Assembly: GCA_965222075.1 (NCBI GenBank)
Contig: OZ244937.1
Coordinates: forward strand, 2,592,001 to 2,656,000
Direction: 5' to 3'
DNA: 64,000 bases
Origin: Candidatus Latescibacterota bacterium
GTDB lineage: Bacteria; Latescibacterota; UBA2968; GCA-2709665
Notes under the pieces: generated by a model
What the model was told of the DNA's origin: nothing
Seen by the model: only the letters and a program-made list of their open reading frames with translations
Databases searched by the model: none
In this document: piece after piece, positions 8,958 through 20,317 of the stretch
Position numbering within the stretch: position 1 is the first letter of the stretch
Layout: each line of letters starts with the position of its first letter
Position numbers and translations under genes: made by a program

Positions 8958-9251
8958 TCAATCGCGCTGTGTGATCCGGTTCGTCGTATCGGCCAGTCGA
9001 TCGGCCTTCCTGCAAACGACCTGCTCCATACGCTGGCCGGATTCCTCTTCTTTGAACAGCTCATCGGCTAAGTTTACAGCCGTGAGCACCGCGATTTTGG
9101 CAACCGACCGTAGCGAAAGCGTGTTGGCAATTTCTCGCATCTTACGATCAACGTACCGGGCCACCTCACGGGTATGATCGGAATCGGTTTTAGACGCAAT
9201 TTTATATTCTGTGCCAAAAATATGGACGTGTACAAGCGGTAAATCCGACAT
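8958..9251 (-). CDS. zapA: cell division protein ZapA
   Basis: VHIFGTEYKI...VARYVDRKMREI...AVLTAVNLADEL. Confidence 0.9.
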   Translation of the reverse strand: MSDLPLVHVHIFGTEYKIASKTDSDHTREVARYVDRKMREIANTLSLRSVAKIAVLTAVNLADELFKEEESGQRMEQVVCRKADRLADTTNRITQRD

Positions 9252-9265
9252 GGGGGCAGATTTCC

Positions 9266-9571
9266 CTATTCTGTGTCCACAGCATCCAGCCGAGACAACA
9301 TCGCCTCGATTTTCTGTTGAATCTCCTCCTTATTCTCAATCAGAGAGGCATTTTCCTCACAGACCTTCCGGAGCCGATCCCGCTCGGCGCGTAACTCGGA
9401 AAGGGTCTTCTCCTGAAGCTCCACCTTCTCTCCAAGTTCCTGATTCCGTTGCTTCAGGTCTGCATTTTCGCCGCGTAAATGCTCCATCCTGTCGACCGCC
9501 CGGTCGATCTCTGCCACCAGACGATTGACGCCACCGTGCAACTCGTTTTCCTCCTGCGTGTCAGCGTCCAT
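9266..9571 (-). CDS. ZapB-like coiled-coil protein
   Basis: All coiled coil, ends EEIQQKIEAMLSRLD; immediately upstream of zapA. Confidence 0.7.
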   Translation of the reverse strand: MDADTQEENELHGGVNRLVAEIDRAVDRMEHLRGENADLKQRNQELGEKVELQEKTLSELRAERDRLRKVCEENASLIENKEEIQQKIEAMLSRLDAVDTE

Positions 9572-9844
9572 CCCAATTCCCTCCAAATGGGGGTCTCTTA
9601 CGACCAACACAGCCTCATAGGCCAATTTAACACCTCTGGCCCTTAAAGTCAAGCGTCTGACAACAACCTTCTGGTTCTTCTTAACTTATAAAAAAAACGG
9701 AATCTGCATAGAGGGCGATCCACCGTCTGAACCGCCTCCCCCATGCAGATTCCATCTTCAAATCAGACGTATCAAAGCAGGGAATCGGGAAGGTAAACCG
9801 CCCGGTTTTGGAGAGCAGGGAGGGGCCCTGCTCCCTATTCCCCT

Positions 9845-10198
9845 CTAAATGTGCTGCCTGGCCTGCTCGGACAGGGCCGCAAATGCCTCTGCATCTGTCA
9901 TAGCCAGATCTGCCAGCACCTTTCGGTTGACATCCACGCCGGCCTTTTTCAGACCGTTCATCAGGCGGCTGTAGGACAGCCCGTTGAGCCGGGCGGCCGC
10001 GTTGATCCGCACAATCCAAAGTGCCCGAAACGTCCGCTTCTTCTGTCTCCGGTCACGGTAGGCATAGGCCAGCCCGCGATTGACACTGTCGTCGGCAGTG
10101 CGGTACAGCTTGCTCCGCCCACCCCAGTATCCCCGGGCGGCCTTGAGCACCTTCTTTCGTCTGCGACGCGATGCAACTCGATTTGTTACCCTCGGCAT
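9845..10198 (-). CDS. rplT: 50S ribosomal protein L20
   Basis: MPRV...[26 protein letters not shown]. Confidence 0.98.
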
Positions 10199-10208
10199 CG
10201 ATTCCCTC

Positions 10209-10403
10209 CTAAACGACCAGCATCCGCTTGACCCGCTTTAGATCCGCTTTGTGGATCGTAGCCGGCTTCCGCAGATGCATTTTACGTTTACTCGACTTCT
10301 TGGCCAGGTTATGGGTAGCCGTTGACTTGCCCCGGCGGAGGCTTCCAGACTTTCGCCGCCCGAAACGCTTGGCAGCACCCCGATGACACTTCATTTTAGG
10401 CAC
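10209..10403 (-). CDS. rpmI: 50S ribosomal protein L35
   Basis: [14 protein letters not shown]; lies between infC and rplT. Confidence 0.95.
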
Positions 10404-10556
10404 GGATCACTCCTTGATGTTAATTTCGTGATTCTTCGCTCGATTCTCGTTATTCGATCACGCGTCGCGAGTCCAAAGCCGCGGGTCCTCCACCCAACCC
10501 CGGTTTGGGGTGACTCGTGATGCGTGACCCATAGACGGTCTTTTCACGATCCACAA

Positions 10557-11093
10557 TTACTTGGGAATCAGGATAATCACGACGTTGCGCCCTTCATCCC
10601 GCAGCGGCGTCTCTGGGGTTCCGACCTCCTTGAGGTCTTCTTCCACCCGTTTCAACAACGCCCGCCCCTGTTCCCGATACATATTCTGGCGACCCCGGAA
10701 TTCCACCGATACCTTCACCTTGTGACGCTGCTTCAGGAAATTCTCGGCGTGTTTCATCTTGAACTCATAATCGTGGTCGCTGATCATCGGTCCAAGCCGG
10801 ATCTCCTTGAGCTGCGAACCGCTCTTCTTTCCCTTTCTGGCCTTCTTGCTCTGCTCGTATCGGTACTTTCCATAATTCATAATACGGCAGACAGGCGGCC
10901 GGGCATTCGGCGCAACCTCCACCAGATCCAGGTCTTGCGCTTCGGCCATTTCCAGAGCCTGCTTCGTCTCTACAATACCGAGTTGCTCGCCCGACTCGGA
11001 AATCAGCCGAACCTGATGGATCCGGATCTGTTCGTTGACCCGGGATGTATTCTCCTGCCTGCGCTCTCTGAAACCTCTGGAACCTCGATTGAT
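10557..11093 (-). CDS. infC: translation initiation factor IF-3 (probable AUC start)
   Basis: RVNEQIR...VRLI...DLVEVAPNARPPVCRIMNYGKY; SD GGAGGTG precedes an in-frame ATC at 11093. Confidence 0.95.
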   Translation of the reverse strand: MNRGSRGFRERRQENTSRVNEQIRIHQVRLISESGEQLGIVETKQALEMAEAQDLDLVEVAPNARPPVCRIMNYGKYRYEQSKKARKGKKSGSQLKEIRLGPMISDHDYEFKMKHAENFLKQRHKVKVSVEFRGRQNMYREQGRALLKRVEEDLKEVGTPETPLRDEGRNVVIILIPK

Positions 11094-11179
11094 ACGATCA
11101 CCTCCAGCGTGAAACCCAGAGCACGCGACAGGCCGCCCGCTGCCCCGGGACGATAGATGGCTTCCTCTCTGCACACTCC

Positions 11180-13123
11180 TTACGACATCTTCTTTTCCTG
11201 GATCTCCTGCTGCATTTTGGCCGTCACATCTTCCAAAGACAACTTTCCCAGGTCTCCTTCCCCGTGTCGGCGCACCGAAACCGTTCCTCCTCCGACCTCC
11301 TGTTTGCCCACAATCAGCATATAGGGAATCTTCTGAACCTCTGCCTCTCGGATCTTATAACCCAGTTTGGCGTCCTGATCGTCCACCTCTGCACGGATGC
11401 CCGCCGCCTTAAGGCGCCGCGCCACCTCGGCAGCATAATCCGAAAACGGGTCGGAAACCGGCAGCACAATCGCCTGCACCGGCGCCAGCCACAGCGGGAA
11501 GTTGCCCGCATAGTGCTCGATCAACACCCCGAAAAACCGCTCCATCGACCCCAGCAGCGCCCGGTGGATCATATAGGGGCGGTGGTGCTTGCCGTCCTGA
11601 CCCACAAAACTCAGGTCGAACCTCTCGGGCAGGTTGAAATCGAACTGGATCGTGGTGCACTGCCACTCCCTGTCTAAGGCATCGTTAATCTTCACATCGA
11701 TCTTCGGCCCGTAAAACGCGCCGCCGCCCTCATCCACCCGGTAGGGCAGCTTCTGCGAGTCCACCGCCCGCCGCAGGGCATCGGTCGCCCGGTCCCAATC
11801 TTGAGGGTCTCCTACGTAGTCTTCCGGCCGTGTAGAGATATACACGTTAAAATCCTCAAACCCGAAAGATCTCAGGATGTAGAGCGTGAAGTCGATCACG
11901 CGGACGATTTCATCCTCTACCTGGTCCGGTCGGCAGAAAATGTGCGCATCGTCCTGCGTGAACCCACGCACCCGCATCAGCCCGTGGAGCACCCCCGCGC
12001 GCTCATACCGGTAGACCGTGCCCAGCTCCGCCCAGCGGAAGGGAAGCTCCCGGTAGCTCCGCAGCCGATTCTTGTAGATCATGCTGTGAAACGGGCAGTT
12101 CATCGGCTTGGCAAAGTACTCCTGCCCATCGATATCCATCGGGGCGTACATATTCTCCCGGAAGAAATCCAGGTGCCCGCTGGTCTGCCACAGCCTGGAC
12201 CGCCCGACATGGGGCGATCCGACCAGTTCATACCCACCCTCGTAGTGGGCCCCGCGCCAGAAGTCTTCTATCTCGTTCCGTATCCGGGCGCCTTTGGGGT
12301 GCCACAGCGCCAGCCCGGGACCGACGGTATCGCTGATCGAAAAGAGATCCAGCTGCGCTCCCAGCATCCGGTGGTCCCGCTGTCTGACCCCTTCCAGCCG
12401 TTCCAGATAGGCCTTCAGATCCTTTTTATCCGGAAACGAAATCCCGTAGATCCGCTGCAGCATCTTGTTGGATTCGTCTCCACGCCAGTACGCCCCAGAA
12501 GAACTCAACAGCTTGACCGCCTTGATCCGCCCTGTGCCCGGCACGTGGGGACCCCGGCAGAGGTCGCACCACTTATCCGCATTCCGGTAGATGCTGATCG
12601 TCTCGTCCGGCCCGATATCCTCTAAGATCTCCAGCTTGTAAGGCTCGTCCAGATCCGAAAAAATCTTCACCGCCTCATCCCGGGACGCCTCCACCCGTTC
12701 AAAGGGCTGGTCTTCTCGAATGATCTCCTGCATTCGGCCCTCGATCCCTTCCAGATCCTCCGGCGTAAAAGGCTCGTCCCGGTCGAAATCGTAGTAAAAC
12801 CCATTTTCGATCGGAGGGCCGATGGTTACCTTCGTATCCGGGAAAAGGTCCTGCACGGCCTGCGCCATAATGTGGGCCGTGCTGTGCCAGTAGACCTCCT
12901 TACCCCCGTCGCTGGCAAAGGTCAGAAGCTCGACTTCAGCATCTTCCCACAGCGGATAACTCAGGTCAACCGCTTCCCCATCCACCCTCCCGGCCAGGGC
13001 CGCACGCGCAAGCCCCGCACCGATCGATTCGGCGACCTCTAAAAGGGTGGCGCCTGTGGGGAAGTCTTTTTGAGACCTATCAGGCAGTGTAACGGCAATG
13101 CAACCGTTCTTCTCTTCTGACAT
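11180..13123 (-). CDS. thrS: threonine--tRNA ligase
   Basis: TGS domain, WHSTAH, DLCRGPH, KPMNCPFH, RVRGFTQDDAH, FYGPKID. Confidence 0.98.
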   Translation of the reverse strand: MSEEKNGCIAVTLPDRSQKDFPTGATLLEVAESIGAGLARAALAGRVDGEAVDLSYPLWEDAEVELLTFASDGGKEVYWHSTAHIMAQAVQDLFPDTKVTIGPPIENGFYYDFDRDEPFTPEDLEGIEGRMQEIIREDQPFERVEASRDEAVKIFSDLDEPYKLEILEDIGPDETISIYRNADKWCDLCRGPHVPGTGRIKAVKLLSSSGAYWRGDESNKMLQRIYGISFPDKKDLKAYLERLEGVRQRDHRMLGAQLDLFSISDTVGPGLALWHPKGARIRNEIEDFWRGAHYEGGYELVGSPHVGRSRLWQTSGHLDFFRENMYAPMDIDGQEYFAKPMNCPFHSMIYKNRLRSYRELPFRWAELGTVYRYERAGVLHGLMRVRGFTQDDAHIFCRPDQVEDEIVRVIDFTLYILRSFGFEDFNVYISTRPEDYVGDPQDWDRATDALRRAVDSQKLPYRVDEGGGAFYGPKIDVKINDALDREWQCTTIQFDFNLPERFDLSFVGQDGKHHRPYMIHRALLGSMERFFGVLIEHYAGNFPLWLAPVQAIVLPVSDPFSDYAAEVARRLKAAGIRAEVDDQDAKLGYKIREAEVQKIPYMLIVGKQEVGGGTVSVRRHGEGDLGKLSLEDVTAKMQQEIQEKKMS

Positions 13124-13269
13124 TTTAAAACCCTGAACCTCAACGAAAACAAAAAAACGCGCCACCTGCCATCTGCGCGCCCAATTCAGCAAAGCATCAG
13201 GTGGCATTCATCCGTCCCTTTGGCTCTCCTCGCAAATGGGTTAAGAGGGAATTGGACCTAAAGTTAGGT

Positions 13270-13298
13270 TAATTTATACTATATATCGTATATTGTCA
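13270..13298 (-). promoter_or_regulatory. sigma70-type promoter for thrS
   Basis: TTGACA-17 nt-TAAATT on the minus strand. Confidence 0.6.
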
Positions 13299-13389
13299 AG
13301 CGAAAACTCCAGACCAGGTGCCGTCCAAAAACAGCGTATAAAAAGAAAAATAAAAGGCTCCTGCCTCCCCTCTCTCATCCCTTTTCCTT

Positions 13390-14196
13390 TCAACCTCCCA
13401 AGAGATAGAACGTCTCAACCGGATACGCCATTTTACGCACAGAGACCTTCAGATCATCCACCATACGGTCCATCAAAGCGTCATAGTGCTGCGCCATCCC
13501 CTTCTCCCTTCCACCCAGCGTCCGGGCGGGAAAAGAGACCACCACATAATCCGCCCGCAATCGCCTCAGTAAATCCCCCGTGGCCCCCTTCATCTGCTGC
13601 TCCAAACAGGGGACTGACTTGAACAGGAAGACCACATCCGCTTCCAGGTCCGGCCCCGACACCAGAATATCCCTGCAAACCGCCCCCGGATCGTGCCCCA
13701 CGCATCTGAAAAAATCGTTGGCCGCGCAGACCAGCCGGTGGTCAATGTCGTACGCCACGTATCGGGCCGCCCGGTCCAACTCCATCCAGAGCAGCGCAAA
13801 AGGATTCAGCCCGCAGGCCAGGTCCAGGAGGGTGCGCGGCTGCCCGATCTCCTCGAACAGATCCCGGTAAAACCCGGCCATGATAGGCAGGCGCTCCGCC
13901 GTTGAAGCATGGCACTGAAGAATCTCATAACAGGCCGCCCGCAGGTCGGCGTCCGGCAGGGAAGGAGAAAGCCTGCCCAGCAGTTCCTCCACCCGGGCAA
14001 ACTGAAAAGCATCGAAATACGCGCCGTAAACCTGGTGCAGCTTCCGTTTTGCCGCCCTCACCGCCGTCTTGCCGTTCGGATGGCGGCGCCCTGCCCAGTC
14101 GGCCACACGGTAGAGCGTATCCTCACACAGGTGCCGGTACTTCCTGGCCTGCCTCAGCCGGTCCACAACCTCCTGACAAAAATCGCTGTGTGTCAA
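13390..14196 (-). CDS. Rmt/ArmA/Sgm (FmrO) family 16S rRNA m7G1405 methyltransferase homologue
   Basis: AKRKLHQVYGAY, HASTAERLP, LDLACGLNP, YDID, FKSVPCLEQQ, VVSFPARTLGGREKGM..Y and terminal ETFY match the family. Confidence 0.85.
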   Translation of the reverse strand: MTHSDFCQEVVDRLRQARKYRHLCEDTLYRVADWAGRRHPNGKTAVRAAKRKLHQVYGAYFDAFQFARVEELLGRLSPSLPDADLRAACYEILQCHASTAERLPIMAGFYRDLFEEIGQPRTLLDLACGLNPFALLWMELDRAARYVAYDIDHRLVCAANDFFRCVGHDPGAVCRDILVSGPDLEADVVFLFKSVPCLEQQMKGATGDLLRRLRADYVVVSFPARTLGGREKGMAQHYDALMDRMVDDLKVSVRKMAYPVETFYLLGG

Positions 14197-15329
14197 AGCG
14201 GAAGCCCCTTACCCGGCCGGTCCAGGGCTCGAAGACGGTCTATCAGGTTGCCGTAAAACTTGAGATTGTGTATCGTCGCAAGCCGGTGCGCAGAGGCGTC
14301 GTTAACCTCGAAGAGGTGATGCAGATAAGCCCGGGTATACCGCCTGCAGAACAGACAGTCGCAGCGCTCGTCAATCGGCAGCCGATCCCTGGCATACCGC
14401 TCGTCCCCGATGTAGAGATACCGGTAGAACGCCCTGCCCTCTAAGCCGCTCGTCTCCAGCGCATCGTTTAAAACGTAGAGCCGCTTCTGGCGGGCGTCAC
14501 GCGTCGGGATCGTGCAGTCGAACGTATCGTACCCCATCCCGAACGCCTCCACCAGATTTTCCGGTTTGCCGATCCCCAGCGCATGTTTGGACAACGCTTC
14601 GGGAATCAACTCGGCCACATACCCCACCCCGTCCACCAGCATCCCTTCCAAATCGATTGGCCACCCGCCATACCCGTACCCGTCGAACCCGATCTCTAAC
14701 AGCGCGTCGGCGCATCGTTTTCGAAGGTCGGGATTTTCTCCGCCCTGGACAATACCGTAAAGCAGAGGCCGTTTTCCCCCCAGTGCCCCCTTCTCCACCT
14801 GGCGATCGTATTCCACCTTGCATCTGCGGGCCCATTCAATCGTGTGTTCAACGCTCTCCACCTGTGCCGTCTCAGGCTCATTGGGATGGGTGCAGTGATC
14901 CAGGCAGAACATCAGATCCGCCCCTATACTAAACTGTTTCTGGATGCACTTTTCGGGCGTCAGCACCCGCCGCTTCTGCTTTTTTCCCAGCCGGTACGTG
15001 AACCCCCGGCTGGAAATGCGGCCCCCTCCGGGATCTTCCGCAACCAGTGAAAAAACCTGAAACCCGCCCGAATCCGCGGCCACCGGACCGTCCCATCCCA
15101 TAAATCGGTGGATGCCACCCAAACTTGAGACCAAAGAAATCCCCGGATGGGACGAAAGGTGCAAGGTGTTCACCATCACCCCCCCCACGCCGCAGGCTGC
15201 CAGATCGACCGAATCCAGCGTTCGCACCACCCCCCGCGTGCCGTCCGGCAAAAACGCGGGCAGCCTGAGTTCCCCGCGGCCCGTCTGCAAAACCTTCACC
15301 CCATCGGCCTCCTTCTCCTCAGAACGCAT
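14193..15329 (-). CDS. tRNA-guanine transglycosylase family protein (divergent TGT paralogue)
   Basis: DSGGFQVFSL, LDHC, GIVQGG, FDCTIPTR, Zn site CDCLFC...HNL; pocket loop GGWPID is atypical; start uncertain (15299-15374). Confidence 0.85.
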   Translation of the reverse strand: MRSEEKEADGVKVLQTGRGELRLPAFLPDGTRGVVRTLDSVDLAACGVGGVMVNTLHLSSHPGISLVSSLGGIHRFMGWDGPVAADSGGFQVFSLVAEDPGGGRISSRGFTYRLGKKQKRRVLTPEKCIQKQFSIGADLMFCLDHCTHPNEPETAQVESVEHTIEWARRCKVEYDRQVEKGALGGKRPLLYGIVQGGENPDLRKRCADALLEIGFDGYGYGGWPIDLEGMLVDGVGYVAELIPEALSKHALGIGKPENLVEAFGMGYDTFDCTIPTRDARQKRLYVLNDALETSGLEGRAFYRYLYIGDERYARDRLPIDERCDCLFCRRYTRAYLHHLFEVNDASAHRLATIHNLKFYGNLIDRLRALDRPGKGLPL

Positions 15330-15384
15330 CCAGCCCCAGCCCTCCCGGATCCGCCACCACATCCACGGCCGCAACCAGATCCAC

Positions 15385-16038
15385 TTAAGGCAAATGCAGC
15401 ATCCGGTGAATCCGGCACGACAGCCGCCAGTTGGGGTGCCGCGTCAAAATCTCCAGCGCCTTGTGAATATACTCTGACCTGCTCGACTCCGGCTGCAGGT
15501 AGATATACTCGGCCCGGTCTTCTTCGACCATATCCTCCCGAAACGTCTTCCCCACCACGTACTTCAACTCCGTAATCCGCGTCAACCCCGCTGCAATCGT
15601 CCGCCGCTTGGGCGACACCGTCCAGTGCTCGATCAGTTCATAAAGCGCCGGGGCCGGATCGATCGTCCCGTTCGTTTCAATATGCAGCCGGTAGCCTGCA
15701 TCCTTCAACGACCCGCAGAGCGGAATAATATTCTGCCCCAGCGGCTCCCCTCCCGTCAAACAGACCCACTCCACCGTATGCCGCCCCACCTCCTCCAAGA
15801 CCTGTTCGACCGACATCTCCACATAGGAATCGAACTCCGTATCGCAGAAAAAACAGCGCAGATTGCACTTGGCGAGCCGTACGAAGGTTGTGGGCTGCCC
15901 CACCCGAAGCCCTTCCCCTTCGATCGAGTAAAAAATCTCATTGACCTGTAAGACCCGTCCCTCCTCCCGCCAGACCGGCATCCGATCCGCGGGGGCAGGG
16001 GGAATCCCTTCCAGGCTATCGAGCTCGCGTTCCGACAC
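15385..16038 (-). CDS. queE: 7-carboxy-7-deazaguanine synthase QueE (radical SAM)
   Basis: EIFYSIEGEG...FVRLAKCNLRCFFCDT, TGGEP, HIETNG, TVSPK, YLQP; start uncertain (16038 GTG or 15981 ATG). Confidence 0.85.
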   Translation of the reverse strand: MSERELDSLEGIPPAPADRMPVWREEGRVLQVNEIFYSIEGEGLRVGQPTTFVRLAKCNLRCFFCDTEFDSYVEMSVEQVLEEVGRHTVEWVCLTGGEPLGQNIIPLCGSLKDAGYRLHIETNGTIDPAPALYELIEHWTVSPKRRTIAAGLTRITELKYVVGKTFREDMVEEDRAEYIYLQPESSRSEYIHKALEILTRHPNWRLSCRIHRMLHLP

Positions 16039-16071
16039 CAAAGTGCTCCTCATCCAGGTGGCCAGTGACCC

Positions 16072-16106
16072 ACCTGCCTGCAGCGCAGAGCACTGCGCAG
16101 GCAGGT
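16072..16106. repeat. REP-like palindrome, copy 1
   Basis: ACCTGCCTGC-AGCGCAGAGCACTGC-GCAGGCAGGT; its reverse complement matches 53956-53990 at 31 of 35 positions. Confidence 0.7.
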
Positions 16107-16282
16107 CCCTCCCTGTGAAATATACTACCCATTCGCTGCATCCGCAAGAACAAGCCCTTGAAATTTCTTGACAACGCCTCCTGGAGTCAAGAAATTGTAG
16201 CAATCAACCGTCTCCAAAACGGAACGGCCCTGGTCTCCATTCTCCCGTATCTGACAATCCGCCTTCAAAAAGGAGATCCCCA

Positions 16283-17074
16283 ATGCACCCCTTCGAAGCC
16301 CTCAAAGTACCCCAGGGCAGCGTCGGCATCCACTGGTTCGGACAGAGTTCCTTCGCCCTTAAAAACACCTCGGACCCCATCGTCCAGGTCGACCCCTACT
16401 TTCCCAGGGAGCGTCCCGCCGACCGGTTCATCCACGCCCAGCCCCCGCTGGATGAGGCAGCGCTCAAAACCGACTTCGTCCTCCTCACCCACAACCACGG
16501 AGACCACACCTGCGTCGAGTCCCTCCGCCGCATCCACGCCGCCTTCCCCGAAGCCCGCTACATCGGCCCTCCCGAAAGCGTGGCGAACATGCTGGAGAAC
16601 GACATCCCCGAGGGCCTCCTCACAACCGTCACGGCCGGAGAGTCTGCCTCTCTGGGCCCCATAACCGCCCACGCCGTCTGGTCCAAACCCATGGAAGGCG
16701 TGCCGGAAGAGGAGATCAAGCCCCCCGACGTCCAGCACCTCGGCTACGTTGTCGAAGCCGGGCCGGTACACGTCTTCATCTCCGGAGACCCCATCAACAC
16801 CATTGCCGACCACGACGAACTCCTTCAACCTATTGCCTTCCTCCAGCCCAACATCGGCCTGCTCACCACCCACCCGGACGAAGGCGAATTCCCCTTCTTC
16901 GCCGGATCGATCGAAACCGCCCTGAAACTCGGCCTGGAGGCGGCGGTGCCGGCCCACTACGACTGTTTCGTCACCCGCACCTACGACCCCAACAAATGGG
17001 CCGCCATGTTTCCGGAGATCGGCCCTCAACCAATCATCATCCCGTACAACGACTCAATCGTCTACCCGGGTTGA
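16283..17074 (+). CDS. MBL-fold metallo-hydrolase (UlaG-like)
   Basis: WFGQSSF, VDPY, THNHGDH, ISGD, VPAHYD. Confidence 0.85.
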   Translation: MHPFEALKVPQGSVGIHWFGQSSFALKNTSDPIVQVDPYFPRERPADRFIHAQPPLDEAALKTDFVLLTHNHGDHTCVESLRRIHAAFPEARYIGPPESVANMLENDIPEGLLTTVTAGESASLGPITAHAVWSKPMEGVPEEEIKPPDVQHLGYVVEAGPVHVFISGDPINTIADHDELLQPIAFLQPNIGLLTTHPDEGEFPFFAGSIETALKLGLEAAVPAHYDCFVTRTYDPNKWAAMFPEIGPQPIIIPYNDSIVYPG

Positions 17075-17128
17075 CCTCTTCCCTTCCAGCGAAATAATCG
17101 ACGCAAATCAAATTAAAGAAAGGACAAT

Positions 17129-17815
17129 GTGCAAATCCGGAAACACCACGCCGTCATTTTCGATGTGGACGGCCTCATCATAGATACTGAAGAACTCTAC
17201 TGGAAAACGTTCAACAAAACCCTCGGCGATTACGGCTTCTCGCTCACCCGGAGAGAATACACCGTCTGCGTGGGGCACCCGGTGGAAGACAACTGCCGGT
17301 ATGCCGTTGATCGCTATCATCTTGAAACCTCGCCCGGGGCCTTCTGCAAAATCTGGATGGCGCGGTTTGAGCGGGCCATCTCCGATCCGGAAAAGATCGC
17401 CCTCATGCCCGGCTTCCTGGACCTGTTGGCACACGTCAGGCGCAAACCCTACCGCCTCGGTATTGCCTCTGCCACGCAGCGCTCCCGCATGGAAAAGACC
17501 CTCCGAAACGGTTTGCTTTCCCGCCTGGAAGGCCTCTCTTCCCTGAATGAAATCTTCACGGCCATGCTCTCCGGCAGCGACATTGAACGGCCCAAGCCCG
17601 CTCCTGACATCTACCTCCTGACCGCAGAACGCCTCGGCGTATCCCCCAAAACATGCCTGGCTTTGGAAGACAGCGAAGCCGGCGTCCGGTCTGCGAAGGC
17701 TGCGGGCATGGCCGTCATCGCCGTCCCCAACCTCTTCACCGCCCACCAGGACCACAGCGCGGCCGATGCTGTACTGGCGCATCTGATGGATGCGGTGAAG
17801 GAAGGGCATGTGTGA
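17129..17815 (+). CDS. HAD family phosphatase (beta-PGM/CbbY-like)
   Basis: FDVDGLIIDTE, KPAPDIY, LEDSEAG. Confidence 0.9.
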   Translation: MQIRKHHAVIFDVDGLIIDTEELYWKTFNKTLGDYGFSLTRREYTVCVGHPVEDNCRYAVDRYHLETSPGAFCKIWMARFERAISDPEKIALMPGFLDLLAHVRRKPYRLGIASATQRSRMEKTLRNGLLSRLEGLSSLNEIFTAMLSGSDIERPKPAPDIYLLTAERLGVSPKTCLALEDSEAGVRSAKAAGMAVIAVPNLFTAHQDHSAADAVLAHLMDAVKEGHV

Positions 17816-17950
17816 CAAGCAACTTATGTTCTCTCTTCCACAAATGACCTCTCAACGCCCTCAGGCGTGAGGAGCCTGCAACGATCCTACCCGGAGCACC
17901 CGCGTTCTGGACTTCCACAAGGCCAAATTTGAAATTTTTTCAAAACCACC

Positions 17951-18676
17951 TCATGCATACGCTTCCGCATCATCCTCCGGTTCGTAGCCAAGCTCCTCAC
18001 GCGCGTTCTGGAGGTCCCAGTAGGCCCGGGTATTGTTGGAAATCCCGAAGTAGACCCCGAACCCCACCGACTCGGCCTCAATGCTTCGCCACACAAGCTG
18101 CACCGTATCCCGGTGGCTCAGCCAGGAGGAGAGAATCCGGTCGCCCTTCCGGTTGATTACCGCCTCGGCCGGTTGAAAGGACCCGATGCGGAGGCAGATC
18201 ACGGACAGCCCGAAGGCGTCCACGTAGTACCTCCCCAGGTCCTCTCCGAATGCCTTGCTCACCCCGTAGTAACTGTCCGGCCGCGCCGGCATCTCCGGCG
18301 TCGTATAAACCCCGTTCTTTTCGTAGTACCCGATCACGTGGTTGGTGCTGGCGAACACCACCCGGTTCACCCCGGTCCTCCGGGCAGCCTCATAAATATT
18401 GTACGTCCCCCGGATATTTGTCTCCAGCACCTCCTCGAACGACGCCCCCCCGGACGGATTGCCGGCCATGTGCACCACCGCATCAACCCCGTTCACGGCC
18501 TCGACCATCCGGTCCAGGTCGGTAATGCTGGCAACGCAGACCTCTTCTCCCGGCGCGCCCGGCAGCACGGTGTTGTGATACAGCAGCCTCAGATCGTAGC
18601 GCTCTTTCAACCCCTCTCGCAGCACCTGTCCGATCCTTCCGGCTGCGCCGGTAATCAACACCTTTTTATGGCACAT
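17951..18676 (-). CDS. NAD-dependent epimerase/dehydrogenase (uronate dehydrogenase-like)
   Basis: TGAAGRIG, ASTNHVIG, YGVSKAFGE, LRIGSF, WLSHRD. Confidence 0.85.
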   Translation of the reverse strand: MCHKKVLITGAAGRIGQVLREGLKERYDLRLLYHNTVLPGAPGEEVCVASITDLDRMVEAVNGVDAVVHMAGNPSGGASFEEVLETNIRGTYNIYEAARRTGVNRVVFASTNHVIGYYEKNGVYTTPEMPARPDSYYGVSKAFGEDLGRYYVDAFGLSVICLRIGSFQPAEAVINRKGDRILSSWLSHRDTVQLVWRSIEAESVGFGVYFGISNNTRAYWDLQNAREELGYEPEDDAEAYA

Positions 18677-18713
18677 ACCCCTTCCTTTCACCGCATGGAT
18701 GAAGTGTCATATC

Positions 18714-19472
18714 CTATCCTTTTACAGTAAGAATACGCTCTGCGTTCCCACCCAGGACCGCCGTCGCGTCCTCGTCGGACAGATCGGTCACAACGCGGGA
18801 CAGCGCGGCGTAGGGAATGAACAGAGGGGCATGGGACCCGAAAAGGAGCTTCTCTCTCAACCCATCCTCTACCAGCACCTTCAACGCATCCATCCCATCG
18901 GCCTGGGACACGTCGGCATAGAGGTTGGGCAACCCCAGCAGCCGGTCTCCGAGCGCCCGGATTTCGGCCGTCCTCGGCCCCCCGATGACCACCGTCAAAC
19001 CGGGATGCCGTTCAGCAGCATCTGCGACCTCGGCCGCAGCGACGTCGGGCACCTGCGCCAAGGGGTGCTGCCGCCTGGGGTCTTCCAGGCGCGTCTGCAC
19101 AATAACCGCCAGCCCCTCCCGTGACAGGGCCTGGAGGAGACCATCGGCGTCGGCAAGCGCGTAGGGCGAATAGGCGGGCAGCAGCCGGACCAGTCTGACC
19201 CGCAGTTCCCGAACCGCCCGGTTCAGTTCGTCCCGCCAGGTCGCCACGGTGGGGTCCAGCACGGGCACCGGCCAGATGTTGTCGGTGGTGCCGGCCGCCC
19301 GGTAAAGCGCGCCGTTGAAGCGGTGGGGGTTGCGGCACCAGGCCGCTTCTAAGGGCGAGATGCAGATCCGGTCCACCCCGTATTCCTGGAGCGAAGCCCG
19401 TACGCTGTTGAGGTCTCCGACCACCGGGTGCGAGGGCCAGTATCCTGTAAATGCGTTCAGGTCGATAATCAT
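18714..19472 (-). CDS. amidohydrolase family protein (degenerate metal site)
   Basis: IDLNAF in place of DxHxH, LLFGSHAP, GGNAERI; ATGA overlap with the upstream gene. Confidence 0.7.
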   Translation of the reverse strand: MIIDLNAFTGYWPSHPVVGDLNSVRASLQEYGVDRICISPLEAAWCRNPHRFNGALYRAAGTTDNIWPVPVLDPTVATWRDELNRAVRELRVRLVRLLPAYSPYALADADGLLQALSREGLAVIVQTRLEDPRRQHPLAQVPDVAAAEVADAAERHPGLTVVIGGPRTAEIRALGDRLLGLPNLYADVSQADGMDALKVLVEDGLREKLLFGSHAPLFIPYAALSRVVTDLSDEDATAVLGGNAERILTVKG

Positions 19473-20317
19473 GGTGCATCTCCTTCCGGAACCCCGACCC
19501 CTGCCCACTCTGGCAGCAGCCGGGCCGTGTTGTTCCAGAGGATGTCCTGTTTGGCCGCATCAGGCAGGTGGGTGCCCAGCGTTTTGCCCAACTGCACCCC
19601 GAAGTGGCGGATGGGGGCGTCCGAGCCGTACACCACCCGCTCCGGCCCCAGGGCATCCACGGCGATCTCCACGAAGCCGCTTTCCGGATCGCCTCCGGAG
19701 GTATCCACGAAAATGTTCGGACAATCGACCACATCTTCGATCCCGCGCAGGCCGTGGCCGTTGAGGTGTGCCATCACAATCCGTGCTTCCGGATGGCGTT
19801 TTGCCAGGCCCGCAACATCCGCAGGAAACGACTCGCCCACGAGATTCCCCGTCGTCTTCATCCACGCGTGCTGGAGCACCGGTACCCCCAGCGCCACCGC
19901 CCGCTCCAGAATCGGGTCCAGCCCCGGGTCCGTCGCCCGCCGCGCCACCCACAACTTGATCCCGCTCATCCGTTCGCCCGCCACACACCGATCGATCTCC
20001 TCCACCGCCTCGTCCGGATACATCGGGTTCACATAACAGAACGGCAGAAACACCTCCGGCGCGGCCTCCCGCATCCTCAGCGCATAGTCGTTCGCCTCCC
20101 GGCACTCCGCCACCGACGGCTCCCGGGGACAGGTCGTATACAGCGAAAACAGGCACATCTTCTCCACCCCCGACCGCTTCGCCGATTCCACCAGCAGCCG
20201 CGCATCCTCCCGGATCGACGCCACCTTGTAAAGCCCGAAACAGTCCAGCGGATGCACGTGCACATCCAGCGCAGGCCAGGGCGGCCGCAGCCGGTTTCGT
20301 ACATCGTCAGGCGTCAT
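19469..20317 (-). CDS. amidohydrolase_2 family protein
   Basis: DVHVH, GIKLW, VLQH, MAHL, YGSDAP, WNNTARL. Confidence 0.85.
   Translation of the reverse strand: MTPDDVRNRLRPPWPALDVHVHPLDCFGLYKVASIREDARLLVESAKRSGVEKMCLFSLYTTCPREPSVAECREANDYALRMREAAPEVFLPFCYVNPMYPDEAVEEIDRCVAGERMSGIKLWVARRATDPGLDPILERAVALGVPVLQHAWMKTTGNLVGESFPADVAGLAKRHPEARIVMAHLNGHGLRGIEDVVDCPNIFVDTSGGDPESGFVEIAVDALGPERVVYGSDAPIRHFGVQLGKTLGTHLPDAAKQDILWNNTARLLPEWAGVGVPEGDAP

Follow-up and report, generated by a model that had tools for sequence, protein, structure and literature searches.

A divergent tRNA-guanine transglycosylase gene paired with a predicted 16S rRNA G1405 methyltransferase gene in a Latescibacterota genome, in other phyla and on resistance plasmids

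The locus

The window analysed here is a stretch of 64,000 bp (contig OZ244937.1, positions 2,592,001 to 2,656,000) from a Candidatus Latescibacterota bacterium, the genome of which is 5.36 Mb in size and consists of one contig (GCA_965222075.1). Its minus strand carries three open reading frames (ORFs) in the same direction which, by the ORF list and domain searches, specify a QueE-like protein, a member of the tRNA-guanine transglycosylase (TGT) family which we name TGT2, and an S-adenosylmethionine (SAM)-dependent methyltransferase of the FmrO family (Table 1). Gene order, trees and reading frames show the latter two to be a conserved, co-inherited and, as read from the sequence, translationally coupled unit. 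A first-pass annotation of this DNA had listed the same three co-oriented genes beside thrS, with a TTGA overlap between the TGT stop and the methyltransferase start. The ORFs, Pfam and NCBIfam bear out the gene families, Pfam the translation-gene neighbourhood (thrS-infC-rpmI-rplT), and direct reading the overlap.

At the junction the minus strand reads CCG CTT TGA, the TTG start (14196-14194) overlapping the TGA stop (14195-14193), and a Shine-Dalgarno-like run, AAGGGG, lies 8 nt upstream of the methyltransferase start. TGT2 most likely starts at GTG 15299 rather than at the start of the longest ORF, because this codon has an AAGGAGG run 8 nt upstream, a 95% identical homolog (P0001) is also 368 amino acids long, and a related strain (run X17), whose 4.3-kb contig differs at 102 letters over 12900-15333, has 12 different letters in place of the 52 nt at 15334-15385, which form the queE-TGT2 gap. 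The true start of queE is probably ATG 15981 or ATG 16053.

Table 1. Features on the minus strand around the TGT2-methyltransferase pair (window coordinates)
Feature	Position	Strand	Remarks
FmrO/Rmt-type SAM methyltransferase	13390..14196	-	268 aa; probable 16S rRNA G1405-N7 methyltransferase
TGT2, divergent tRNA-guanine transglycosylase paralog	14193..15299	-	368 aa from GTG 15299; longest ORF extends to 15374
Overlap of TGT2 stop (TGA) and methyltransferase start (TTG)	14193..14196	-	Direct sequence reading
queE, 7-carboxy-7-deazaguanine synthase, radical SAM	15385..15981	-	Start alternatively at 16053; longest ORF 15385-16203
Terminator-like hairpin followed by T run	13352..13369	-	21 nt past methyltransferase stop; consensus scan only
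Promoter-like site TTGACA-17-TAAATT before thrS	13271..13299	-	Consensus scan only; 10/12 matches
thrS, followed downstream by infC, rpmI and rplT	11180..13123	-	Translation-gene context; Pfam

Conservation of the pair

Among 168 Latescibacterota genomes an FmrO match over the cut-off was found in 20; a 21st has a 21-bit match at the level of chance. When searched with TGT2, 163 of the 168 contain a member of the TGT family, and TGT2-grade matches (at least 53% identity, 409 bits) are found in precisely these 20 genomes; elsewhere the best match is 41% identical with 252 bits. TGT2 lies directly upstream of the FmrO gene on the same strand in 19 of these 20 loci. In the remaining one (G044) the contig begins at the methyltransferase gene, and TGT2 ends another contig, next to queE. 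Since the arrangement is kept in every relative within the phylum that bears either gene (one locus being cut by a contig end), the adjacency is, on this gene-order evidence, far beyond chance in the Latescibacterota. Overlapping or abutting TGT2 and methyltransferase frames recur in relatives and on plasmids.

The pair fills the gap between queE and thrS only in families f1 and f2 (16 genomes), a placement that looks like one ancestral event. In G070 two Mutator-family transposase genes (L034 4054-5304 and 7905-9152) flank it between queE and thrS, while in G042 an oxidoreductase gene lies between queE and TGT2.

Outside this phylum FmrO was found in 3 of a sample of 300 Clostridia genomes. 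All three have a TGT2 with the GGWP motif described below directly upstream in overlapping frames, and all three have a canonical tgt as well. A Defluviitaleaceae (Firmicutes) genome has the order TGT2, PNPOx-like, glyoxalase-like, FmrO directly before the S10 ribosomal-protein operon. In some copies small unrelated genes stand between the two partners: the PNPOx-like and glyoxalase-like genes in this Firmicute (L006 5085-5994) and a metallophosphoesterase gene between tgt and rmtB2 on a plasmid (L036 5131-5940).

A metagenome scan with the TGT2 alignment kept 80 loci, nine of which are of the GGWP type. FmrO is adjacent in four of the nine (L039, where it lies upstream, L040, L042 and L046), and in L041, L044 and L047 the contig ends right after TGT2. 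The available flanks of L043 and L105, both beside uvrC, contain no FmrO; none was found near L045 and L048, which are TGT2-like with G-A-R-P in place of G-G-W-P, nor in any of the 69 remaining metagenome TGT loci. L045 (948-3013) and L048 (345-1541) represent an early-branching TGT2-like lineage, and in L045 the gene adjoins a PolyA_pol-family (CCA-adding-like) gene and rplJ. L042 has two different FmrO genes in tandem (949-1773 and 1734-2594) behind a single TGT2, the second very divergent and on a long branch. In a comparison of tables, which is not direct adjacency, at least 19 TGT2 relatives, out of 120 listed, have a longest contig of exactly the size given for one of the 120 listed methyltransferase relatives, including records of Armatimonadota, Zipacnadales and Aminicenantes.

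The two proteins were also compared by phylogeny. A quick maximum-likelihood tree built from 71 TGT sequences, 7 of them database rows labelled as having a methyltransferase without context evidence, contains a branch (Shimodaira-Hasegawa approximate likelihood ratio test, SH-aLRT, 100) which splits 29 canonical from 42 TGT2-like rows. One clade of 38 rows (support 97) holds all those with a known adjacent methyltransferase together with three plasmid TGTs, and the TGT2-like lineages without a nearby methyltransferase branch earlier. The methyltransferase tree (43 rows) groups RmtD2 with RmtG and then RmtB2, L040 with L042a, and 32 Latescibacterota-like rows. Because both trees recover the same main groups, the two genes are seen, as far as the trees tell, to have diverged together; this is joint inheritance and not evidence of contact. 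A complex prediction for TGT2 and the methyltransferase scored 0.00, which counts neither for nor against binding. No TGT-FmrO fusion was found in a search for longer proteins with the methyltransferase, and protein-atlas look-ups gave no mixed-family cluster.

TGT2 and its altered pocket

TGT2 scores 297.7 bits against PF01702 and 288.2 against TIGR00430, under the cut-off of 306.75, and is 37% identical to the genome's own canonical Tgt, so that its initial description as a divergent TGT was accurate. It scores far under the models for DpdA (17.4 versus a cut-off of 200) and TgtA (75 versus 350), and we rejected identification as a DNA-acting DpdA or an archaeosine TgtA on these values.

The structural model of TGT2 (predicted local distance difference test, pLDDT, 88.7) has a template modelling (TM) score of 0.85 to the Zymomonas mobilis TGT. 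The two have in common the TIM barrel with zinc subdomain (1OZM, 1Q2R), and by alignment TGT2 keeps the equivalents of Asp102, Asp156, Cys158 and Asp280 as well as the Cys3His zinc ligands. TGT2 differs from the Z. mobilis enzyme in belonging to a separate clade, in its pocket residues, and in two insertions, about 14 residues behind the PTRDAR motif and 3 residues within the loop that follows DSGGFQ. Model confidence is lowest at the loop following strand 1, at that following DSGGFQ, and at the insertion. In canonical TGTs the first of these loops is the loop-helix motif (accessible text of PMC5395182) and the second is apparently the dynamic loop contacting tRNA (accessible text of PMC13416341).

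Where the canonical pocket reads GGLAVGE, that of TGT2 reads GGWP[IV]xx, with Trp for Leu231 and Pro for Ala232. We compared 40 TGT2-clade rows with 41 canonical rows: the Ala232 to Pro change is present in 40/40 of the former versus 0/41 of the latter, and position 45 is Asp in 95% of the TGT2 rows and Val in 90% of the canonical ones. The Glu235 position is not conserved in the TGT2 clade, and the window TGT2 has no Glu there. The fixed differences are few, namely V45D, Lys52 to Arg, Ala227 to Gly, Ala232 to Pro, a clade-specific insertion and one Asn to Asp. In the window TGT2 the pocket for ribose-34/phosphate-35 has its floor changed by Val45 to Asp, Leu68 to Met and Val282 to Thr, the roles of these three positions being those given in the portions of PMC5395182 available.

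According to the available portions of PMC3660597, the Leu231/Ala232 peptide of the canonical enzyme flips, backed by Glu235, presenting its NH toward guanine (the Ala232 amide to N7 through a water molecule) and its C=O toward preQ1. Since the catalytic residues are kept while Trp-Pro replaces Leu231/Ala232, Glu235 is missing and the floor is altered, TGT2 looks like an apparently active base-exchange enzyme which has lost the guanine-N7 peptide switch, which would not be able to recognise an unmethylated N7 by the usual route, and which appears to hold the neighbouring backbone differently from canonical Tgt. Two other features were set aside. Tyr106Phe was neutral in the part of PMC3660597 that describes it, and tRNA-contact residues outside the active site are no guide to the substrate, as they vary even among canonical TGTs in what is accessible of PMC13416341.

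The methyltransferase

The 268-residue partner scores 160.7 bits against PF07091 (FmrO; residues 17-254) and 224.6 against NF000466, close to but under the equivalog cut-off of 250. Its closest solved relatives are Sgm, RmtF, RmtC, RmtB and ArmA, the best being Sgm (3LCU, 140 bits). The AlphaFold model (pLDDT 93.9) gives TM scores of 0.77-0.89 to Sgm, RmtF, RmtC and RmtB chains and 0.58-0.77 to the shorter ArmA chain, and its 15 top PDB matches are all Sgm, RmtC, RmtF, RmtB or ArmA. Among the chains listed, Sgm stands at 0.84-0.87 and RmtC, RmtF and RmtB at 0.79-0.85. Family models and fold, the latter with N1/N2 helical subdomains and a class I methyltransferase core, therefore agree with the Rmt/ArmA type first assigned to it. 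Sequence identity to the listed Rmt/Sgm structures is only 23-36%.

The RmtC-30S paper, in its accessible text (PMC10288597), names 22 functional RmtC residues, of which K20, R50, H54, Y60, K204 and M245 are described as essential or critical. These were mapped by a pairwise HMMER alignment to 8GHU, and with K/R swaps counted as kept the methyltransferase retains 15 of the 22: K20, Y21, R39, K43, K47, R50, H54, Y60, R68, S107, D160, K204, K236, R241 and M245. All six that are so described are among them. RmtC Y40, K67, K71, K72, T207, R211, S239 and N248 are not kept; at the R211 position stands Gln, followed three residues on by a Lys where Sgm has Arg. The equivalents of the residues that contact SAM or position G1405 (RmtC S107, D160, H54, Y60, K204, K236, R241 and M245) are S98, D150, H54, Y60, K193, R225, R230 and M234. 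For docking on the 30S subunit the N1 residues are kept in 5 of 5 cases (K19, Y20, R38, R47, K50) and the N2 residues in 1 of 4 (R68). The SAM-binding, N1-docking and G1405-positioning residues, along with a full-length fold match, are thus common to the window enzyme, Sgm (3LCU/3LCV) and RmtC (6PQB, 8GHU), from which it differs at the N2 basic residues (K67, K71 and K72 of RmtC) and at R211. Across 33 methyltransferase relatives most of these kept positions vary little or not at all.

The genome holds one FmrO gene, and its own 16S rRNA gene is canonical over 1392-1407, G1405 among them. From these residues and folds we predict that the methyltransferase is very probably an ordinary G1405-N7 16S rRNA methyltransferase. 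The first-pass suggestion that it may have a new target found no sign in its favour, the N1-docking and G1405-positioning residues named in the available RmtC text being kept.

Queuosine genes and the position of queE

The genome has a canonical tgt 1.28 Mb from TGT2, with 526.6 bits on the Pfam model and 497.5 on TIGR00430 (cut-off 306.75). Profile searches located queC (two copies), queF, queA and queG elsewhere in the genome. All queuosine-pathway genes searched for exist without TGT2. Both queC copies exceed the model cut-off (G000:C1:1887181-1887789 and 2875526-2876122, outside the window), and one lies within a 509-amino acid open frame which may encode a fusion protein. The canonical tgt was found in G000, G168, G174, G264, G037, G106 and G070, and 18 of the 20 pair-bearing Latescibacterota genomes show two TGT matches, the two without the canonical copy being 90% and 95% complete. 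The first-pass annotation had asked for a neighbourhood survey and a search for a canonical tgt, and would have given up its proposal had the adjacency not been conserved and TGT2 been the genome's only ordinary queuosine TGT. The survey found the adjacency conserved in Latescibacterota, Clostridia and metagenomes, and TGT2 is an extra copy.

The queE product carries the radical-SAM CX3CX2C motif as CNLRCFFC. Its five best NCBIfam matches are QueE models, and because all of these scores are below their cut-offs the protein is, judged by the models, a QueE subtype not yet modelled. It is the sole copy found in the genome. A QueE-like protein occurs in 154 of the 168 Latescibacterota genomes, with one match in most, and is 65-82% identical in genomes lacking the pair. 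Three such genomes were picked from the QueE match list (G057, G087 and G082), and all three have queE some 0.4-1.2 kb upstream of thrS, neither TGT2 nor the methyltransferase lying between. By comparison, queE is megabases from the pair in G106 and G107, and G037 and G039 have a different QueE type elsewhere. The inclusion of queE in the cluster, as first proposed, was accordingly rejected: gene order places it as a housekeeping synteny neighbour outside the conserved unit.

Clinical plasmids

A tblastn search of TGT2 against 72,556 plasmid records matched 70. Twelve full-length TGT matches are 45-47% identical and two partial ones 52%, compared with 35-37% for the listed matches to chromosomal-type tgt genes. 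Four records were inspected (NZ_KT935446.1, NZ_CP021956.1, NZ_CP118864.1 and NZ_LC511996.1), and in all four a TGT2-type gene lies just upstream of a named G1405 methyltransferase gene, rmtD2, rmtG, rmtB2 or rmtE2. The arrangements are tgt-rmtD2, tgt-metallophosphoesterase-rmtB2, rsmH-tgt-rmtG, and a shortened tgt ORF followed by rmtE2, with the tgt and rmt frames overlapping on the rmtG and rmtE2 plasmids.

The plasmids thus share with the window the gene order, in which a TGT2-type gene immediately precedes a G1405 methyltransferase gene, and their TGTs, 45-52% identical to that of the window, fall inside the TGT2 clade. They differ in that the plasmid copies, carried by pathogens, lie by IS91/ISCR, IS26 and Tn3-family elements whereas that of the window is on the chromosome between queE and thrS, and in that the tgt upstream of rmtE2 is shortened, unlike TGT2 of the window. 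IS91-family transposase genes adjoin all four plasmid copies and IS26, Tn3-family or Tni genes are near three. The first-pass remark that there is no mobile-element context holds within the window, no antibiotic-biosynthesis or mobile genes being present among its annotated genes, but not for the pair at large, given the IS91/ISCR elements beside the plasmid pairs and the transposases in G070. The window methyltransferase is not the direct source of the four plasmid enzymes, since the methyltransferase tree puts it in another group.

In their 2008 account of the rmtD environment, Doi et al. are said to have named a tRNA ribosyltransferase gene upstream of rmtD. For rmtG, the accessible text of one paper notes a 'putative tRNA ribosyltransferase CDS' (coding sequence) immediately upstream (PMC3904158), and that of a review gives the operon as rsmH-tgt-rmtG-rsmL (PMC9311965). 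We found no paper treating the pairing of a TGT with an Rmt enzyme as a functional unit, only such passing mentions of gene context in the accessible parts of these two.

Associations with the decoding centre

In G037, rsmI (TIGR00096, 189.2 bits versus a cut-off of 167.9) lies directly upstream of TGT2 and the methyltransferase gene in one operon, and rsmH lies upstream of tgt-rmtG on the rmtG plasmids. Two Actinoallomurus proteins (P0121 and P0122, of 560 and 614 amino acids) are fusions of RsmI, the 16S C1402 2'-O-methyltransferase (PF00590), to FmrO. RsmH and RsmI form m4Cm1402, and the recurring extra partners of the pair (rsmI, rsmH and the RsmI-FmrO fusion) share the top of helix 44 as their site of action. 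The placement of the pair before the S10 operon in the Defluviitaleaceae genome is a further link to the ribosome. Neither rsmH nor rsmI adjoins the pair in the window. Besides queE, no queuosine or tRNA-modification genes were noticed in the inspected clusters.

Transcription and neighbouring features

The promoter-like site found by consensus scan before thrS suggests that thrS is a separate transcription unit. Contigs from two RNA libraries of one study are identical to 13817-14211, 13821-14217 and 14923-15110, none bridging the junction under a 31-letter rule; as such contigs may include DNA, they give a weak hint of transcription of the pair, and stretches without such cover carry no meaning either way. 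An Rfam scan of 9000-18000 with E values up to 1 returned no preQ1 or other riboswitch and only one match, at the level of chance.

Just upstream of queE is a 33-nt GC-rich imperfect palindrome (16073-16105) which has 3 exact copies in the genome and is skipped in the related strain (run X17). It draws many unrelated contigs, producing a spike in depth, and looks like a small repeat of the REP (repetitive extragenic palindrome) kind. The neighbours at 16283-20317 look ordinary: an MBL-fold hydrolase, a HAD phosphatase, two overlapping Amidohydro_2 genes, and an Azf-like NAD-dependent dehydrogenase (211 bits versus a cut-off of 400).

A possible role at the decoding site

Our tentative explanation, which we hold to be somewhat short of an even chance when taken whole, is that the window encodes a conserved two-gene module for the ribosome decoding site in which TGT2 acts on decoding-centre rRNA. 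In its first step, which is very probable, the Rmt/Sgm-type enzyme would dock on the assembled 30S subunit, flip G1405 out of helix 44 and methylate its N7, the consequence of which would be resistance to 4,6-disubstituted aminoglycosides. Secondly, as the sequence shows, TGT2 is made in translational coupling with the methyltransferase, and it is an extra copy, with intact catalytic residues, beside the queuosine Tgt. In the third step, possible but distinctly less secure than the first, TGT2 would swap a guanine in the small-subunit rRNA at the decoding centre. In favour of this reading are the strict pairing of the two genes, the presence of TGT2 in addition to a canonical Tgt, the G1405-type residues of its partner, the associations with helix 44 enzymes, and the altered pocket. 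The simplest version would take as substrate the N7-methylated G supplied by the partner, the incoming base being guanine or a 7-deazaguanine from the preQ pathway of the cell. Such a substrate would fit the TGT2 pocket because 7-methylguanine has a labile glycosidic bond and no N7 lone pair, and the pocket donates no NH. In its most specific form, which we think rather unlikely, TGT2 would be the first rRNA-guanine transglycosylase, with N7 methylation of G1405 priming its swap for another base, for example a stable 7-deazaguanine.

Several points weigh against an rRNA substrate. TGT2 retains about 37-40% identity with Tgt and the Firmicute TGT2 passes the Tgt equivalog cut-off (330.5 versus 306.75), so tRNA stays a natural candidate. 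The early-branching L043, L105, L045 and L048, which have no FmrO nearby, already possess Asp45 and Pro232, and the pocket change is therefore not strictly tied to the partner, unless this lies elsewhere in those genomes. Within the accessible text of PMC10288597, RmtC alone methylates E. coli 30S subunits, that is, Rmt enzymes work without a partner; G1405 is described there as base-paired and buried, being reached by RmtC only when helix 44 is greatly distorted, so that a second enzyme would need its own access. We know of no report of base exchange or of a 7-deazaguanine in rRNA.

The strongest competitor, which we consider a real if lesser possibility, is that TGT2 is a second tRNA-guanine transglycosylase acting on anticodon loops, on another set of tRNAs, in another context or with another 7-deazaguanine base. 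Both enzymes would then tune decoding at one site, the wobble base 34 and the top of helix 44. To our knowledge, all TGT-family enzymes with a known RNA substrate act on tRNA, and TGT2 has the bacterial Tgt fold and catalytic apparatus (TM 0.85 to the Z. mobilis TGT; 288-330 bits against TIGR00430). The V45D change in the pocket floor could mean a neighbouring nucleotide other than U35, and those preQ0/preQ1 genes that were searched for (queC, queE, queF) are present in the genome. A tRNA substrate, however, leaves the strict co-occurrence with the methylase unexplained. Nor does it account for the recurring extra partners, which act on 16S C1402 and among which no tRNA or queuosine enzyme, for instance queA or queG, ever appears, and a canonical Tgt is found alongside TGT2 in 18/20 Latescibacterota and 3/3 Clostridia. 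On balance we favour 16S rRNA at the decoding centre over tRNA as the TGT2 substrate, although neither reaches an even chance.

Base exchange of the Tgt type is reversible and also uses free guanine, according to the accessible text of PMC3660597, and one could imagine TGT2 as an eraser or proof-reader which returns 7-methylguanine to guanine, resetting m7G1405 or clearing off-target m7G. The coupled expression of the two genes and a pocket without the NH that reads an unmethylated N7 are in keeping with this, but a writer and an eraser in fixed ratio would run a futile cycle; moreover an intact tgt travels with rmtD2, rmtG and rmtB2 on isolate plasmids, where an efficient m7G1405 eraser should be counter-selected. 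We regard this role as improbable.

Least credible is an antibiotic self-resistance or acquired-resistance island of three genes including queE, with the TGT an unlinked passenger: FmrO-family genes are indeed known, under their NCBIfam names, from producers and from acquired resistance, and transposase genes flank the pair in one relative, but none of the annotated window genes is biosynthetic or mobile, inheritance is vertical at one locus in two families of the phylum, the two trees agree, and a passenger would not be expected to keep both its catalytic residues and its place beside the methylase from phylum to phylum.

Significance

Pan-aminoglycoside resistance of Gram-negative pathogens is caused by the G1405 methyltransferases. 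In nature these seem to serve as housekeeping partners of an enzyme dedicated to base exchange, which has been carried along with rmtB2, rmtD2, rmtE2 and rmtG onto plasmids. The pairing with TGT2 offers a synteny marker for tracing the origin of plasmid rmt genes, and defines a distinct TGT clade which pipelines currently annotate as 'Tgt'. Were TGT2 to swap a base in rRNA, this would be a new kind of rRNA modification; and were the exchange primed by methylation, the clinical rmtB2, rmtD, rmtE and rmtG plasmids would carry half of an undescribed pathway.

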